From: a virus | Virus record (IMG/VR): IMGVR_UViG_3300037063_000214 | Length of the DNA stretch: 64,000 nt | Strand: one strand, 5' to 3' | Shown here: one piece after another, positions 40,130 through 59,624 of the stretch | How positions within the stretch are numbered: position 1 is the stretch's first letter | Layout: the number at the start of each line of letters is the position of its first letter | Made by a program: the position numbers and the translations under genes | Notes under the pieces: generated by a model | Databases searched by the model: none | Told to the model about the DNA's origin: nothing | What the model saw: only the letters and a program-made list of their open reading frames with translations

Positions 40130-41923
40130 GTGGAAGAATCTACAGTAGTAGCGCCAACAGTAAAAAATCTTATCTCGGAAAAATCCGCCGATCTGCGTGA
40201 CCATTTCCCCTTTAACACTATACGGGAAAATCAAAACGAGACTCTAGATAAGCTTGCAATCTGGAATAAAAGCAATAAAAAATTTTTCATTCTTGAGGCG
40301 GCCACCGGGTTCGGGAAAAGCCCAATAAATATCGCGGAAGCATCTTGGGCTAAAACATCAAAAGGACAATTTAAACCTGGTGCCTACATTCTCACCCCTC
40401 AAAAAACTCTAGCCCAACAATATATGACTGATTTTGAACCTTTGGGTTTAGTTGAACTCAAAGGGAGAACCAATTACACCTGCGCGAGCTGGTCAAAACA
40501 AATGGGGGATAGAGTAAATTGTGAAGATGGGGCATCTATGAATGAAGCCCAGAGAAAGAAGATATCCGATCAAGATAAAAATCCTTCAGAGGAGCCAGAC
40601 AATTTCGTGGATCAAAATCCCTCTCCAGAGGAGCCAGACGATTTCGTGGATCAAAATCCCTCTCCAGAGGTACGTTGTGGTTCCTGCCCATACCGCATTG
40701 CTAAAGATAAATTCATGCATTACCCTTTTGGTACAACAAATTTTGCATACTATTTGTACGAATCAAACCTCTCTGGTCAATTACCAAGAAGAAATACACT
40801 AATTTTAGACGAGGCTCATAACACAGAAGAACAAATTTTAGGCTTAACGGAAACAGTAATTACTCAAAAAGATTGTACTAAAAATGGTGTATCTGAAAAA
40901 CTTCCCATTTTTAAAGATAATGATTCAGATGCGGTTATGCTTTGGCTTGATAATATTTTGGTGCCCGCTATTTCTAAACGATTAATGCATCTGGCTTCGC
41001 AGCTAACATCTGAAAAAAACAGAGTAGCATTAGACGCGGCAAGAAAAAAATCAGCACTGGAGAATTTTATTTTACGCTTGAATTTTTTTCGTTACGCAAA
41101 AGATAAAAGTGAGTGGTTTGTTTGGTCCGACTGGAATGAACAATTTAAACAGGGTACAGGAGATTTGTGTATTAAGCCTTTAACCGCACGTTTATTTGCG
41201 CATGATCTTCTGTTCTCTAAAGCCCAAAAAATATTGATTACATCCGCTACGATTCTTGATCCCAATACTTTCATGCGTAGTTTAGGGATACATCCAAACG
41301 ATGCAGAGTATCTTTCTATTGGTAGTGAATTTCCCATAGAAAATCGTCCTCTATTTTATTGGCCGGTAGGGAATATGCGCCAAAAAGATATTAAAGAAAC
41401 TCTCCCAAAAATGGCAGAAGAGGTAGAAAAAATTTTAAAGTACGCTCGATATTCAACTAAAAAAGGAATTGTACACACACAATCCTATTACATCAATAAT
41501 TATTTGGTGCGATATTTGCGGGATAGAGGACTTGGGAATAGAATTATAACTCATGATTCGAATTTTGGAGCAAGGGAAGAAGCGCAATTTCAACATATAG
41601 TAGCTAGAGAAAAAGACCCTACTATTTTATTTTCTCCGTCTATGACAGAGGGGCTCGACCTTAGGGAGGATTTAAGTCGATTGCAAATAGTTTGTAAGGT
41701 TCCTTATCCAGCGCTTACGCCGTACAATAAAGCTAGAATGCAACGTGACCCTGCATATTATCAATGGCAAACCGCTTTAAAACTGGTTCAGCAAACCGGC
41801 AGAAGCAACCGAAGCGCAACTGATCGTTCCCATACTTTTATACTAGATTCTGGCTTTAGTACTTTTATTCAAAAAAATAATCATATCCTACCCAAGTACT
41901 GGCTCGATGCGATCCACTGGTAA
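40130..41923 (+). CDS. Superfamily-2 DEAH-box helicase, XPD/DinG-like with a Cys-rich (Fe-S) insert
   Basis: GTG start. Walker A EAATGFGKS; motif II LILDEAHN; motif VI QQTGRSNRS. Cys cluster YTC..NCED..RCGSC lies between motifs I and II. Confidence 0.7.
   Translation: MEESTVVAPTVKNLISEKSADLRDHFPFNTIRENQNETLDKLAIWNKSNKKFFILEAATGFGKSPINIAEASWAKTSKGQFKPGAYILTPQKTLAQQYMTDFEPLGLVELKGRTNYTCASWSKQMGDRVNCEDGASMNEAQRKKISDQDKNPSEEPDNFVDQNPSPEEPDDFVDQNPSPEVRCGSCPYRIAKDKFMHYPFGTTNFAYYLYESNLSGQLPRRNTLILDEAHNTEEQILGLTETVITQKDCTKNGVSEKLPIFKDNDSDAVMLWLDNILVPAISKRLMHLASQLTSEKNRVALDAARKKSALENFILRLNFFRYAKDKSEWFVWSDWNEQFKQGTGDLCIKPLTARLFAHDLLFSKAQKILITSATILDPNTFMRSLGIHPNDAEYLSIGSEFPIENRPLFYWPVGNMRQKDIKETLPKMAEEVEKILKYARYSTKKGIVHTQSYYINNYLVRYLRDRGLGNRIITHDSNFGAREEAQFQHIVAREKDPTILFSPSMTEGLDLREDLSRLQIVCKVPYPALTPYNKARMQRDPAYYQWQTALKLVQQTGRSNRSATDRSHTFILDSGFSTFIQKNNHILPKYWLDAIHW
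40578..40670 (+). repeat. 39-nt tandem direct repeat (two full copies plus partial flanks) inside the helicase Fe-S region, encoding PEEPD(N/D)FVDQNPS x2
   Basis: cagaggagccagacaatttcgtggatcaaaatccctctc at 40587-40625 and again at 40626-40664 (1 mismatch), with partial copies on both sides. Confidence 0.85.
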
Positions 41924-43143: not shown

Positions 43144-43731
43144 ATGACAATCTACTATAAACTCACGACACAAGAAGGAATGACCCAAAACAATACCCAA
43201 TGGGGCGAGAATGTAACTCATGAGGCTACGGGAGACATTGAGCAAGATTTATGCTCCAATGCATGGATACATGCGTACACCCATCCCTTACTCGCCATAC
43301 TCATGAACCCGGCTCATGCGATGATAAAAAATCCCATCCTTTGGGAAGGAAATGGAGAAGGGGAAGCAAAATTTGAACCCCTTAAGTGCGGGTTCAGAAA
43401 GTTTACTACGCTTCGACAAATTCCTCTTCCCGAAGTAACCAATGTTCAAAAGGTAGCCTTTGGTATTCTCTGTGCTAAAGAAATAAATACGGACTCAAGT
43501 TGGAACCAATGGGCAGATAAGTGGTTAAGCGGGGAGGATCGTACTAAATCTTCTGCTTATTATGCTGCTTATGCTGCTGCTTCTGCTGCTTCTGCTGCTT
43601 ATGCTGCTTCTAATGCTGCTAAGTATGCTGATGCTGCTGCTTATGCTGCTTATGCTGCTTATAATGCTGCTTCTAAAGGCAAAGAATTAGATTTTGTTTC
43701 GATTGCCCTTAAAGCCATGGAGGTGAAATGA
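43144..43731 (+). CDS. Hypothetical protein with a C-terminal Ala/Tyr-rich repeat (AAYAA)n
   Basis: C-terminus SAYYAAYAAASAASAAYAASNAAKYADAAAYAAYAAYNAAS is encoded by a GCT-rich microsatellite at 43549-43680. Confidence 0.55.
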   Translation: MTIYYKLTTQEGMTQNNTQWGENVTHEATGDIEQDLCSNAWIHAYTHPLLAILMNPAHAMIKNPILWEGNGEGEAKFEPLKCGFRKFTTLRQIPLPEVTNVQKVAFGILCAKEINTDSSWNQWADKWLSGEDRTKSSAYYAAYAAASAASAAYAASNAAKYADAAAYAAYAAYNAASKGKELDFVSIALKAMEVK

Positions 43732-44012
43732 TGAGTAAACAGGCGGGGTTGATGCGTGAAATGGTGTGTTCGAAAGGGGATGTAATTCTAAAAAAAGAGA
43801 GTGATCTGCTGGTCAAAGATACGAAATTGACCACTTTATTTTTCCATATCTTCAATTGTGGTGAATGTAAAAAACCCGCACATTTCGGTTTGACTTTGAT
43901 GGCTTTGGCTGTAAGGGGTGCTACGGATATTGCTTTAGAAGAAGTCGCTGGACAAGGATATCAGGAGATTGTGAATGAAGAAGCTGGAGAAGCTGGAGCA
44001 GCGAGAAGCTGA
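43728..44012 (+). CDS. Hypothetical small protein (94 aa)
   Basis: GGAGGTG SD; ATGA overlap with the upstream gene. Confidence 0.4.
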   Translation: MMSKQAGLMREMVCSKGDVILKKESDLLVKDTKLTTLFFHIFNCGECKKPAHFGLTLMALAVRGATDIALEEVAGQGYQEIVNEEAGEAGAARS

Positions 44013-44634
44013 AAATTTGGTGGTTATGCTTTTAGGATGCAAGCTACCTCTGACTCACGAGGCACTTAAAGCTGCGTATCGAAATGCTGTGAGACGCCTT
44101 CGCCCTGACTTAGCCAACAATAAGCAGAATGACGAAGAATTCATTCACATGAAGGATTTGTATTCAGCGTTGCTGGATCAAGAGCCGATTTGGGCGTTTG
44201 TAGACAGTCTTCCCTTAACAAAAACTGTCGAAGGTACTCCCCTAAATGACCTGGGTTTGGGTCTGGGTTCTCGAAAAAACGGAACTGATTGCAAGGATTG
44301 TAACCACAAAGGGTACACAGAACATCATCCTACGGGCTACCAGCGCTGCTCTTGGTGTTTTGCGGGGTTTGCCTACTCGCAACCTTGTCTACGCTGTAGC
44401 GGCACTGGAAATGGCCCTAAGCAGGTTCCTAATACTTGTCCCCAGTGCCTGGGTCGGGGAATTAAGGAATTTTCTCGTGTTGTGCGGTGCGGACAATGCG
44501 ATGGAAGCGGCGGGAAGCAAATTAAAGAAAAGGCAGTTGAATATCACACCTGTTACAAATGCTTAGGAACGGGTGAAATTGAAATTTTCAATCCAGTGAT
44601 TCCAAAAGGGGTTTTAATAGGAAAAGAAAGGTAG
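43975..44634 (+). CDS. DnaJ-like protein: degenerate J-domain (HPD replaced by RPD) plus a DnaJ-type zinc finger (4x CxxCxGxG)
   Basis: THEALKAAYRNAVRRLRPDLANNKQNDEEFIHMKDLYSAL is J-domain-like. CLRCSGTG, CPQCLGRG, CGQCDGSG, CYKCLGTG are the four zinc-finger repeats. AGGAG SD present. Confidence 0.7.
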   Translation: MKKLEKLEQREAENLVVMLLGCKLPLTHEALKAAYRNAVRRLRPDLANNKQNDEEFIHMKDLYSALLDQEPIWAFVDSLPLTKTVEGTPLNDLGLGLGSRKNGTDCKDCNHKGYTEHHPTGYQRCSWCFAGFAYSQPCLRCSGTGNGPKQVPNTCPQCLGRGIKEFSRVVRCGQCDGSGGKQIKEKAVEYHTCYKCLGTGEIEIFNPVIPKGVLIGKER

Positions 44635-44640
44635 AAAAAT

Positions 44641-44904
44641 ATGGCGGAACATATGAATCAAACAGTAGAGCCAGAGTTGGATGGTTTCAATCGCATGGGT
44701 AAGCCGCTCAGTGAACAAGCAAGGAGCGCAGCCTATGAGCATTGTAAGGCAATGGGACTTAATTCAGCGCGGGCGTGGGAATGCGTCAGCTCAATAGCAA
44801 ATCAACTGGAGCATGATAAGCCTTATGAGGCTCAAGCTGCCGGGATGAGGTTTCTCGATTTGACTGGAACCTATCGCCTGATGGCTGTTCTACTAACAGC
44901 ATAG
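44641..44904 (+). CDS. Hypothetical small protein (87 aa)
   Basis: ORF with upstream GGTAGAAAAAT then ATG. Confidence 0.4.
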   Translation: MAEHMNQTVEPELDGFNRMGKPLSEQARSAAYEHCKAMGLNSARAWECVSSIANQLEHDKPYEAQAAGMRFLDLTGTYRLMAVLLTA

Positions 44905-48255: not shown

Positions 48256-48287
48256 AAGCCCCGGATCAAACCGGGGCTTTTCTTTTT
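48256..48287 (+). terminator. Rho-independent terminator
   Basis: aagccccgg-atcaaa-ccggggctt hairpin followed by TTCTTTTT. Confidence 0.8.
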
Positions 48288-48332: not shown

Positions 48333-48698
48333 ATGGCTACAAGCAAGTCTAAAATCGGGCGTGAAGAGTTAGTATCTAAAGTTCAAAGTAGACTCAAACT
48401 CAAAACCAAGAAGGAAGCTGATTACATCATAAACGAAGTAGTAGCGGCCCTTGAGTCTACTCTTTTAAGTAACCTCCAAACAAAAGATTTCACCTTGAAG
48501 CTGAGTTCCTTCGGGAAATTTACAGTACGGCATAAAACCGGCATTGTAAGATTCATCCCATTTACCCGTGAAGTAAAACAAACAAAGAATAAAAGAAAGA
48601 TTAGATTTACTCCATTGGGAGAATTGCGGAGAGCGGAACCAGAACCTGAAAGTGATCCTGTGAATTCAAAAAATGATCCAAAAGACAGTAGTAAATAA
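48333..48698 (+). CDS. HU/IHF-family histone-like DNA-binding protein with a C-terminal extension
   Basis: AGGAAA SD. ...FGKFTVRHKTGIVRFIPFTREV...KIRFTPLGELRR fits the HU arm signature. Confidence 0.5.
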   Translation: MATSKSKIGREELVSKVQSRLKLKTKKEADYIINEVVAALESTLLSNLQTKDFTLKLSSFGKFTVRHKTGIVRFIPFTREVKQTKNKRKIRFTPLGELRRAEPEPESDPVNSKNDPKDSSK

Positions 48699-54647: not shown

Positions 54648-55199
54648 ATGGACGATAAAACCCCGTTTGGTAAAATGGTTTATCTAGCATCGCCATATAC
54701 CCACGAAAACAGAGAAGTAGAAACAGAGCGCTTCATCGCGGCTGTTAAAGCTTGTGGGTGGTTGATGGTTAACATTTCAGATGTTCAAATGATTTACTCT
54801 CCCATCGCTCATACACATCCTATCGCTGATGTATGTACTCTTCCTGGTTTTTGGAGTTTTTGGGAAGCTTGCGATAAATGTATGCTCTCACGCTGTGATG
54901 AAATTTGGATTCTCACGCTCGATGGTTGGGAGACCTCTACGGGAGTAACAGCAGAACGGCAGATTGCTTCGGAGTACGGATTGAAAGAAAAATTCGTGGT
55001 TCCTCAATCTGATGGTGGATATGCAGTGGAGGCTTACGAGAAAAAACAAAAAATAAAAGGTAGATCATTTCTTGGATTTCATTTACATGACTGGTCTAAA
55101 TGGGAAGTTGTAAATAGAGGTGAAATTAGATCCGGGATAAAACAAAAGAGAGTTTGTTTAACCTGCAATACAAAGCAAGTTGATATAGAGTGGGTATAA
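54648..55199 (+). CDS. Nucleoside 2-deoxyribosyltransferase-like (DUF1937-type) protein
   Basis: GGAG SD. KMVYLASPYTHENRE... and TSTGVTAERQIASEYGLK fit the YLAsPY...E motif of the family. Confidence 0.5.
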   Translation: MDDKTPFGKMVYLASPYTHENREVETERFIAAVKACGWLMVNISDVQMIYSPIAHTHPIADVCTLPGFWSFWEACDKCMLSRCDEIWILTLDGWETSTGVTAERQIASEYGLKEKFVVPQSDGGYAVEAYEKKQKIKGRSFLGFHLHDWSKWEVVNRGEIRSGIKQKRVCLTCNTKQVDIEWV

Positions 55200-57369: not shown

Positions 57370-59541
57370 ATGAATCGTATTGTATCCGCACTTATCGTTT
57401 TTGTATTATTTGTAACCCCAGTTTTTGCTAGAAACCATCCATTGAAACGTCATGTCCGCAAAGAAGTTACATCGGCTGCTCGTGTAAGTGACCTTCCAGC
57501 AGATCGTCAATTGATTATGGCTATTATGTTGCCTCTCCGCAATGAGTCAACTTTAACAGCTCTTTTACAGCAAATAAACACCCCATCAAGTCCTTTGTAT
57601 CACCAGTTTCTAACGCCTGAACAATTCACTAAAGAGTTTGGTCCAACGGAACAGGATTATCAAGCGGTAGTTCGTTTTGCTATAAAGCAGGGGTTTTTTG
57701 TGTACAAACAACACACTAATCGTATACTTGTTGATATCACTGGATCTACAGCACAAATAGAAAAAGCTTTCAATGTAAAAATGGGGTTATATAAACATCC
57801 TATTGAAAATCGTAATTTTTATTCTCCAGATGTAGAACCGTCTCTTGATTTAGATGTTCCAATCTATCGTATTGCTGGTTTAAATAATTTCTCTATTCCT
57901 AGTCGTAGATTGATTAAGCGTTCATTTAACGCTCGTCTATCAGATGTAGTTGCAGGGTCTGGTCCTAGCGGTTCTTTCCGTCCATCGGATATGCGAGCGG
58001 CATATTATGGATCAGGTACTTTGACAGGTACCGGTCAATCTGTGGGCATGTTAGAGTTCGATGGTTATAATATCGCAGATGTAAATTCTGATATGGGGGG
58101 TGTTGCTTATACCGTACCTGTACAGAATATTCTTGTCGATGGTGCAAGTGCTGGCTCTGATGGAGATGATGGAGAGCAAGCTTTGGATATCGCTCAAGCT
58201 ATCGGTATGGCACCGGGGTTAACTTCTGTACGGGTTTACATCGCCCCAGGCAATTCCGCCATAGGTACCGGAGATGTGGATATTTTTAATCAAATGGCTG
58301 TGGACAACATTTCCAAACAATTGAGTTGTTCTTGGGGTTGGAGTCCCGATGATATAACTGATGATGACCCTATTTTTAAAGAATTCGCAGCACAGGGTCA
58401 AAATCTTTTTGTAGCCTCTGGAGATGCTGGTAAGTATACGGGAAATAACAATAATGATAGCAGCTACCCAGCTGAAGATCCGTATGTTGTAGCTGTTGGC
58501 GGTACGGATTTAACTACAAATGGTGCTGGAGGAACTTGGCAAACAGAAACGGCTTGGTCGGATAGCAGTGGTGGTCCAGCGGACGATGGTTTTGCAATTC
58601 CTAGCTGGCAAGTAGGAGTAGCAAATTCTAATGGTGCTTCTACAGCAATTCGTAATGTTCCGGATGTTGCCGCAGAAGCAAATTTCGATAATATTATGTG
58701 TGATGATGGCGCTTGCACTTACAATCAAACTGGGGGTACTAGCTATGCTGCGCCTCGCTGGGCTGGCTATATGGCTTTAGTGAATCAGCAGAACATGACT
58801 AATCATGGTACTACTTTAGGTTTCTTGAATCCCTTGATTTATCCCATTGGTTTCGGTGCTGCGTACACTATTAATTTTCACGATATTACAAGCGGGAGCA
58901 ATGGGCATCCGGCTACTGTTGGGTATGATATGGTAACTGGTTGGGGTAGTCCTAATGGGGCAACTTTAATCAATACTTTAACAGGCGCTCCAACCGGAGT
59001 AGGATTACAAGCAACTTATAATCCAACCTATAAAACTCCAGCATGTACAGTTGTCAGTAATTCCTGTGATTCAGGCCCAACTCTACTTTTAGGTCGCGGA
59101 AATGTGCATAACGGTGCGGAACAAAATCACCCCAATACAATCAATAACTCTTGCGGGGATGGGAACTCGGGGGTATTTCACTCCTATGAATCAAATGATC
59201 GCCTTGCGGTAGCTTCTGTATCTGGTGGGTTGTTAACCGCGGGTACAAAAGCAACGATAACAGCCACAGTATGGGCTCGAAAGGATTTTGAAAGCGATTC
59301 TCTTGACCTTTACGTTACTTCAAATGTTGTAAATCCTACTTGGGTTTATATCGCTACGCTTAAGCCCACTAAAGATGCACAAAATATTTTATCGACTACA
59401 TTTACTCTCCCAGCCTCCGGCAATTTACAAGCTGTACGAGCACATTTTCGATATGAGGGACATGTGAATCCATCGGCTTGTGGTAATTCTTCTGGTGGAG
59501 AGTATGATGATTATGATGATTTAGTTTTTGCGGTGAATTAA
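57370..59541 (+). CDS. Secreted S53-family serine peptidase (sedolisin/kumamolisin-like) with an N-terminal pro-kumamolisin activation domain
   Basis: AGGAGG SD. Signal peptide MNRIVSALIVFVLFVTPVFA. Pro-domain QFLTPEQFTKEFGPTEQDYQAVVRFA. Catalytic Ser motif GGTSYAAPRWAG; Asp/Glu-rich catalytic region. Confidence 0.8.
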   Translation: MNRIVSALIVFVLFVTPVFARNHPLKRHVRKEVTSAARVSDLPADRQLIMAIMLPLRNESTLTALLQQINTPSSPLYHQFLTPEQFTKEFGPTEQDYQAVVRFAIKQGFFVYKQHTNRILVDITGSTAQIEKAFNVKMGLYKHPIENRNFYSPDVEPSLDLDVPIYRIAGLNNFSIPSRRLIKRSFNARLSDVVAGSGPSGSFRPSDMRAAYYGSGTLTGTGQSVGMLEFDGYNIADVNSDMGGVAYTVPVQNILVDGASAGSDGDDGEQALDIAQAIGMAPGLTSVRVYIAPGNSAIGTGDVDIFNQMAVDNISKQLSCSWGWSPDDITDDDPIFKEFAAQGQNLFVASGDAGKYTGNNNNDSSYPAEDPYVVAVGGTDLTTNGAGGTWQTETAWSDSSGGPADDGFAIPSWQVGVANSNGASTAIRNVPDVAAEANFDNIMCDDGACTYNQTGGTSYAAPRWAGYMALVNQQNMTNHGTTLGFLNPLIYPIGFGAAYTINFHDITSGSNGHPATVGYDMVTGWGSPNGATLINTLTGAPTGVGLQATYNPTYKTPACTVVSNSCDSGPTLLLGRGNVHNGAEQNHPNTINNSCGDGNSGVFHSYESNDRLAVASVSGGLLTAGTKATITATVWARKDFESDSLDLYVTSNVVNPTWVYIATLKPTKDAQNILSTTFTLPASGNLQAVRAHFRYEGHVNPSACGNSSGGEYDDYDDLVFAVN

Positions 59542-59548
59542 CCAGAGC

Positions 59549-59624
59549 GCTCTTGTAGCTCAGTGTAGAGCATTCCGTGTGCAACGGAAGGGTCGGATGG
59601 TTCAACTCCATCCCAAGGGCTCCA
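59549..59624 (+). tRNA. tRNA-like element, possibly a degenerate tRNA (anticodon loop tgTGCaa implies UGC/Ala) with an encoded 3' CCA
   Basis: Acceptor gctcttg/caagggc (one U-G) then t, CCA. D-arm gctc-agtgta-gagc (6-nt loop). Anticodon stem ttccg/cggaa. T-arm ggatgg-ttcaact-ccatcc. Non-canonical G at position 33 and a 6-bp T-stem. Confidence 0.5.

Follow-up and report, generated by a model that had tools for sequence, protein, structure and literature searches.

Known J-domain proteins and the phage protein

J-domain proteins (JDPs) engage Hsp70 chaperones through the loop that carries a His-Pro-Asp (HPD) tripeptide and through helix II, and D-to-N or H-to-Q changes in the tripeptide abolish stimulation of the partner (PMC13254874). 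Among phages, Rki (ORF057w) of the T4-like phage RB43 is the first and only characterized JDP (PMC3486835), and homologues of DnaJ and DnaK are found in some large phages (PMC12619734). A 2026 review describes as open both whether deviations from HPD are accidents or have been selected, and whether pseudo-JDPs act in competition with functional J-domains or do no more than recruit Hsp70 (PMC13254874). Here we describe a small J-domain and zinc-finger protein encoded at 43975-44634 on the plus strand of the IMG/VR virus record IMGVR_UViG_3300037063_000214, analyzed as a stretch of 64,000 nucleotides (hereafter the window). The tripeptide of this protein reads Arg-Pro-Asp (RPD), and comparison with its phage relatives points to RPD being a selected state. 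We give an even chance to the view that it is a phage early protein which docks on the host DnaK as a weak or non-stimulating binder.

The closest described architecture is that of the class A JDPs, typified by E. coli DnaJ (TIGR02349; PF00226 + PF00684 + PF01556), with which the window protein shares an N-terminal J-domain followed by a CxxCxGxG zinc domain. It lacks, however, the Gly/Phe-rich (G/F) region, the beta-sandwich client-binding domains and the dimerisation domain, and where E. coli DnaJ has four CxxC pairs and HPD, the window protein has six CxxC pairs, RPD, a linker signature of its own and an NPV[IL]PKG tail. Judged from these features, it is a protein that would work like, and descend from, the class A JDPs, yet it falls outside that class on three counts. 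With the type IV or J-like pseudo-JDPs (Pam16/Tim16, DNAJB13, the Plasmodium type IV JDPs, HSV-1 ICP22) it has in common a J-fold in which HPD is non-conservatively replaced: Arg stands in place of His in a verified J-domain, and by analogy it would fail to stimulate Hsp70. It differs from them in losing His alone while keeping Pro and Asp (Pam16 has DKE or DKS, DNAJB13 HPL), in being phage-encoded and in being nested within a family where HPD is the norm.

Other viral J-domains are further removed. Rki is likewise a small phage protein with an N-terminal J-domain that is thought to act on the host DnaK, but from its description it stands apart in that its HPD is functional (the protein is inactivated by H38Q) and in lacking a zinc finger, the zinc-finger-like ORFs of RB43 being separate (PMC3486835). 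The J-domains of the polyomavirus large and small T-antigens keep HPD, are followed by unrelated domains and show identities of 15-21%. The same J-plus-zinc-finger architecture is seen among viral proteins in BFVD (A0A6J5RXX2 of an uncultured Caudovirales phage, and DnaJ-like proteins of giant viruses; Foldseek E 1.7e-5 to 6e-4), but these are longer (265-383 aa), share 15-17% identity and lie outside the family of the window protein.

An Arg-Pro-Asp tripeptide in a genuine J-domain

A sequence-only reading of this DNA had proposed a DnaJ-like protein at 43975-44634 whose HPD is replaced by RPD, and had named alignment to DnaJ among the checks; this observation holds. The interval is exactly one complete open reading frame (ORF) of 219 amino acids plus a stop codon. 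The J-domain spans residues about 9-70 (43999..44184, plus strand; helices 9-20, 28-41 and 50-69), with the helical-hairpin fold of helices I-III/IV present. Residues 19-70 match the Pfam DnaJ model PF00226 (E 1.7e-5) with 25.2 bits, just below the gathering score of 27.8, and phmmer against the PDB aligns residues 18-71 with the J-domain of Thermus DnaJ2 such that RPD falls on HPD. The homology is confirmed by hhalign, in which the family profile described below aligns with residues 4-208 of E. coli DnaJ at 98.8% probability. The same profile matches isolated J-domains in the PDB at E 2e-11 to 1e-8, with DNAJA2, matched over its J-domain and zinc region alike, as the best hit there, and when members were scanned singly PF00226 was matched by 101 of 121 (E<=1e-3) and PF00684 by 113 of 121. 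Since most relatives match PF00226 and the family profile matches J-domains of known structure, the J-domain of the window protein is, at the level of sequence, a genuine one.

Arg43-Pro44-Asp45 is encoded at 44101..44109 (plus strand) by CGC CCT GAC and aligns on the HPD of both Thermus DnaJ2 and E. coli DnaJ. No HPD was found in any of the six frames of 43901-44700, which rules out a true HPD reached through another frame or start, and a sequencing error can be rejected as the source of RPD because Arg43 is kept in all population variants of the window protein, the two commonest occurring on 49 and 13 contigs. One rare variant (P0166, on two short contigs) reads RPV; this D45V change removes the otherwise invariant Asp and may be a sequencing error or mark a defective variant.

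The residues that contact Hsp70 are all there in the window protein (K32, Y35, R36, R40, R41, F56, K60). By the residue correspondence taken from the phmmer alignment with Thermus DnaJ2 and from hhalign, R22, Y25, K26, F47 and K51 of E. coli DnaJ are K32, Y/F35, R36, F56 and K/R60 here, and at all five positions conservation reaches 100% in the RPD group of the family and likewise in the HTD/HSD group, which equals or exceeds that in the HPD group.

The phage family and the evolution of the tripeptide

Sixteen direct relatives were obtained from a word-indexed search, and a HMMER profile built from their alignment recovered 242 cluster representatives at E<=1e-30 from 1.84 billion, nearly all of 200-250 aa. 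The window protein is the best match of this profile (297 bits) and has every element of the family: a J-domain, a T..G..L..LG.G linker, six CxxC pairs and a C-terminal E....NPV[IL]PKG, in about 200-250 residues. In the alignment of 162 members, the basis of all conservation values below, the conserved J-domain positions are P25, L31, K32, R36, H43 (96%), P44 (87%), D45 (100%) and F56 (98%). No model in Pfam, NCBIfam or PHROG spans the full length of the family: the best PHROG match, phrog_14336, is of unknown function and covers the zinc part only, and the NCBIfam DnaJ matches of the window protein are weak and partial, TIGR02349 giving 35 bits against a cut-off of 377 bits. Taken together, the profile comparisons indicate that this is a large, uncharacterized phage family derived from the DnaJ lineage and seen almost only in contigs of uncultured phages.

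The tripeptide is HPD in 135 of the 162 members, and hence HPD is the ancestral and normal state and the window protein belongs to a minority. The remainder (17%) comprises HTD (16), RPD (5), HSD (4), YPD (1) and RAD (1), with Asp present in 100%. In a neighbour-joining tree, a simple and crude one built without the three tripeptide columns, the five RPD sequences fall in one clade of seven leaves together with an HPD sequence (P0008) and an HTD sequence (P0004), which suggests that the His and Pro positions are labile in this part of the family. A profile search of a 5.8-billion-protein set yielded no further members of the RPD clade.

Several observations speak to how RPD has been kept. Its codons vary synonymously across the clade (CGC/CGT, CCT/CCA, GAC/GAT), so that the peptide has been held through silent turnover. 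For P0002 and P0003, the sole unsaturated pair (dS 0.6-1.0), the ratio of non-synonymous to synonymous change (dN/dS) comes to 0.089 for the J-domain, against 0.155 for the zinc domain and tail together. Within the clade, J-domain identity is 0.49-0.59 at a zinc-region identity of 0.44-0.51, against 0.35 +/- 0.07 for pairs of HPD proteins at the same zinc-region identity, although the pairs compared are not independent of one another. In this clade the loop following the tripeptide is always RLRPDLAN[NS][KQ]xND[EQ]EF. Given the synonymous Arg codons, the low dN/dS of the J-domain, the invariant Asp and the retained DnaK-contact residues, RPD is best read as a derived state that is maintained by purifying selection, not as decay.

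The same evidence bears on the idea that the phage once acquired a DnaJ gene, of which a decaying or functionless relic is all that is left. The protein is indeed shorter than DnaJ, has lost HPD and scores under the Pfam gathering thresholds, but the window and the contigs from ENA and JGI carry one and the same intact ORF, the protein occurs in 141 blocks of assemblies, dN/dS lies at 0.09-0.15, at least 242 cluster representatives share the architecture and the Shine-Dalgarno sequence is strong; we regard this explanation as effectively refuted. The suggestion of the sequence-only reading that this is a J-protein variant engaging DnaK stands insofar as RPD is under purifying selection and the Hsp70-contact surface is intact, but the protein is no isolated oddity: it is one member of a phage family in which HPD is the norm.

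Proposed docking on DnaK without normal stimulation

In a passage citing earlier work, one paper states that binding of DnaJ to DnaK is disrupted by D35N, and that stimulation of the ATPase is lost with H33Q (PMC12169576). In molecular dynamics, H33A does not change the binding free energy but keeps the complex from passing into the stimulating state, specific docking is lost with D35A, H33 contacts L391 of the linker and D35 pairs with R167 (PMC13012618). The pattern in the phage family matches this division of labour: Asp, the residue for binding, and the basic face are always kept, whereas the residues for signalling, His and the Pro by which it is oriented, have been given up repeatedly. 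Since published work indicates that replacement of His keeps binding while blocking stimulation, and since a conserved RPD with an intact Hsp70-contact surface fits a protein that still engages DnaK, a weak or non-stimulating DnaK binder is the likeliest reading. We propose that the J-domain would dock on the host Hsp70 (DnaK) through the basic face of helix II, Asp45 and Phe56; that, for want of the His through which the signal reaches the ATPase site, hydrolysis would be stimulated weakly or not at all; that the protein would thereby act as a tether or a competitor at the J-binding site of DnaK; and that the zinc domain and C-terminal tail would hold some phage or host partner. The predicted loss of ATPase stimulation by RPD is extrapolated from H33Q and H33A (PMC13254874, PMC13012618).

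Several points weigh against this proposal. No data were found on H-to-R itself, and the long side chain of Arg might contact the DnaK linker. A de novo J-domain analogue without HPD is reported to stimulate Hsc70 (PMC13254874), so that an absent HPD is no proof of inactivity. Scans of GTDB genomes gave no clue to the host, and no conserved neighbour gene pointing to a client was seen among ORFs within 5 kb at ten loci. The RPD clade amounts to five clusters at 90% identity, dN/dS comes from one pair and the tree is a simple neighbour-joining one.

A rival reading is a fully active co-chaperone, in which Arg43 takes over the function of His, perhaps because the Hsp70 of the host or phage has changed in a complementary way, and clients held by the zinc domain are delivered to DnaK as class A JDPs do. 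The strong purifying selection on the J-domain, with Pro and Asp invariant in the clade, and the fixed loop around RPD are what a co-adapted interface would lead one to expect; HPE is tolerated with HscC and, as noted, a designed domain can do without HPD (PMC13254874). We nevertheless hold an active JDP to be unlikely: His is kept in nearly all of the family, even the conservative H-to-Q change kills stimulation in every system tested (PMC13254874, PMC3486835), and no Hsp70 gene was seen in the about 84 kb of the phage that were examined.

An enlarged cysteine-rich domain, the linker and the tail

Downstream of the J-domain the protein departs from DnaJ. The linker signature T84..G87..L90..L93-G94-x-G96..N102-G103 (44224..44283, plus strand) is conserved at 83-100%, its family-wide positions being T84, G87, L90, L93, G94, G96 (100%) and N102, and hhalign finds no confident equivalent in DnaJ; the LGLGLG segment, considered as a counterpart of the G/F or DIF region, is placed there at negligible confidence. 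Residues 70-103 read T..G..L..LGLGLG and contain no Phe-rich stretch, unlike the G/F region of class A JDPs.

The cysteine-rich domain (44290..44574, plus strand) contains six CxxC pairs (C106/109, 125/128, 138/141, 155/158, 172/175 and 193/196). The sequence-only reading had described an intact zinc finger of four CxxCxGxG motifs; these four, which are also those of class A JDPs, are all in place (C138 CLRCSGTG, C155 CPQCLGRG, C172 CGQCDGSG, C193 CYKCLGTG), but two further pairs upstream, C106 CKDCNHKG and C125 CSWCFAGF, had been missed. They are conserved at >=95% among relatives and belong to the same domain. Across the family each of the six pairs is conserved at >=94%, exactly six are found in 131 of 158 full-length members, and motifs 1 and 2 are also CxxCxGxG in most. 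The residues from 138 onward score 28.2 bits against Pfam DnaJ_CXXCXGXG (PF00684; cut-off 32.7), phmmer against the PDB aligns residues 151-213 with the zinc domain of DNAJA3, and the domain is also matched to PDB entries 2ctt and 1exk. Six pairs lead us to expect three zinc sites, and presumably the domain is a sixfold form, with three zinc ions, of the DnaJ domain that has four motifs and two zinc ions. In one subgroup (P0010-P0013, P0085, P0093 and P0126, HTD and HSD types among them) there are four CxxC pairs only; one zinc site has apparently been lost there, which would fit a nested-hairpin arrangement of the six motifs.

As the sequence-only reading had noted, C-terminal substrate-binding domains are lacking. 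Only 23 residues remain between the last CxxC motif and the end of the protein at residue 219, no match to DnaJ_C (PF01556) was obtained in the window protein or in the downstream ORFs, which are without any Pfam match, and there is thus neither the beta-sandwich nor the dimerisation domain of class A JDPs. In their place stands a conserved tail, E201-I-E-I-F-N206-P-V-I-P-K-G212 (44575..44610, plus strand; N206 98%, P207 97%, V208 93%, G212 87%), which recurs across the family as E201....N206-P207-V208-[IL]-P-K-G212 and is predicted as coil with a lower predicted local distance difference test (pLDDT) score. The idea that this tail is a relic of the 'VKIPAGV' beta-sandwich strand of DnaJ is unsupported: a profile of the family C-terminus aligns only with the CxxCxGxG part of DnaJ, and the tail itself aligns with no DnaJ segment past the zinc finger.

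The weight of conservation in these regions raises the question of whether the J-fold has been turned to binding some partner that is not Hsp70, in the manner of the Pam16-Pam18 pair, with the three-zinc domain and NPVIPKG tail serving as a holdase, adaptor or inhibitor for a protein of the host or phage. In the family the linker signature, cysteines and tail are more conserved than the J-domain, about a sixth of members depart from HPD, and phages are known to carry DnaJ-like proteins with the zinc finger only, such as ORF179c and ORF191c of RB43 (PMC3486835). However, the Hsp70-contact residues, including Asp45, are invariant in all tripeptide variants, which is hard to explain without Hsp70 as the partner, and the J-like domains of the Pam16 type have lost Asp too (PMC13254874). 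We therefore consider such a repurposing rather improbable.

A sharper form of DnaK docking is that the RPD clade is an evolved phage inhibitor or trap, filling the J-site without hydrolysis, with NPV[IL]PKG as a DnaK pseudo-substrate, and blocking host processes that need DnaJ; we rate this as distinctly improbable. The tail motif may resemble Hsp70-binding peptides such as NRLLLTG or, from IscU, LPPVK. In such a trap helix II and Asp45 would occupy the J-site while the exposed tail would enter the substrate-binding domain of DnaK, and the HPD, HTD and RPD orthologues would form a graded natural series from activator to blocker. Candidates for the blocked processes would be the turnover of sigma-32 or the anti-phage sensing, of the bNACHT25 type, that depends on DnaJ (PMC12169576).

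The gene and its phage genome

The coding sequence (43975..44634, plus strand), for a phage J-domain and six-CxxC zinc-finger protein, is base-for-base identical in the window, the ENA contig and the JGI contig. An AGGAG Shine-Dalgarno sequence, read from the sequence, lies at 43963..43967 (plus strand) with the ATG 7 nt further on, and the starts of homologues match the position of this ATG. The ORF overlaps the end of a 94-aa ORF upstream by 38 nt and sits within a long same-strand run of small ORFs that extends from the helicase gene at 40130 to a strong terminator-like hairpin at 48256-48279. Two genes upstream, at 43144-43731 (plus strand), is a 195-aa ORF whose C-terminal half is an Ala/Tyr-rich low-complexity sequence (…SSAYYAAYAAASAASAAYAASNAAKYADAAAYAAYAAYNAAS…) and whose sole match is a weak one to phrog_38757. 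No PADLOC defence-system model matched the J-protein or its neighbours.

The phage appears to be a large, myovirus-like one with a G+C content of about 40-42%. The window encodes a protein with an SLT lysozyme domain, very large tail or baseplate proteins including Baseplate_J, a DEAD/Helicase_C_2 helicase, an RNase T-type exonuclease, a RecA-family protein, a 5'-3' exonuclease, an SbcC-like AAA_23 ATPase, a Metallophos phosphoesterase, an HU-like protein and one tRNA-Ala. The block with the J-protein has the tail/baseplate module on one side and the recombination and replication genes on the other, and this position next to the latter suggests early or middle expression. The same early/replication region contains the HU-like Bac_DNA_binding protein (48333-48698, plus strand) and a DUF1937/DUF4406 protein (54648-55199, plus strand). 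Further along, at 57370-59541 (plus strand), is a 723-aa kumamolisin-type (sedolisin-like) peptidase (Pro-kuma_activ, a weak Peptidase_S8 and a sub-threshold GEVED match), which is unusual cargo for a phage; the tRNA-Ala(TGC) at 59549-59624 follows directly after it.

Contigs continue at least 10 kb beyond each window end (L022, L024), with AAA ATPases, a Sequestin-domain protein, NADAR and large structural ORFs, and the longest contig with the J-protein is 176 kb, so that the window covers only part of the phage. No Hsp70 or GrpE domain was found in the window plus 10 kb per side, out of a genome that may reach 176 kb. In an index of public assemblies the window protein occurs in 141 blocks, and two further proteins of the phage occur in 41 and 120; two members of the protein cluster carry adapter-like peptides (MCIRDR…, …VSYTHLSYPRRRTERSGL). 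Either the phage is very widespread, or its occurrence is partly due to contamination across samples.

Family members elsewhere are always found on phage-like contigs of 11 to 78 kb (one member also on a contig of 123 kb), among small same-strand genes and near genes for ParB, DnaB, ThyX, DNA polymerase A, ligase, NUDIX, HNH and sigma-like proteins. An all-against-all BLAST of the ORFs around members at the ten loci returned the J-protein as the only one in common with the window locus. Searches of 50,697 GenBank phage records by tblastn and blastn with the query, P0021 and 7.9 kb of flanking DNA returned nothing. For GTDB genomes, a first scan gave no copy and a second gave four contigs of metagenome-assembled genomes (MAGs), which as potential prophage copies yielded no clue to the host. 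Two of these MAG contigs are long (L017, 606 kb; L018, 272 kb) and have phage-like genes around the family member, namely an RpoB-like gene and a PD-(D/E)XK nuclease on L017, and a sigma factor, a Dda-like helicase and ThyX on L018; they are probably large phages binned as bacteria. Genes resembling sigma factors lie near members, or immediately downstream of them, in three unrelated phage contigs (L004/L005 8588-9211, L014 10973-11188, L018 2466-3485), which is of note because Rki acts on sigma-32 through DnaK, but this proximity may simply reflect a shared early-gene location.

Significance

The combination of a J-domain, six CxxC pairs and NPV[IL]PKG may already figure in the 2020 survey of bacterial and phage JDPs. 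The family enlarges the very short list of J-proteins from phages by a group that is widespread but uncultured, and defines what is predicted to be an enlarged, three-zinc version of the DnaJ cysteine-rich domain. It supplies close HPD, HTD, HSD and RPD orthologues of about 220 aa, and since in this series RPD appears to be selected while Asp and helix II are fixed, the pseudo-JDP question becomes directly testable with small proteins. If a block of DnaK were to prove true, the RPD proteins would provide a lead for natural Hsp70 inhibitors and for the way in which phages handle DnaJ-dependent defences.

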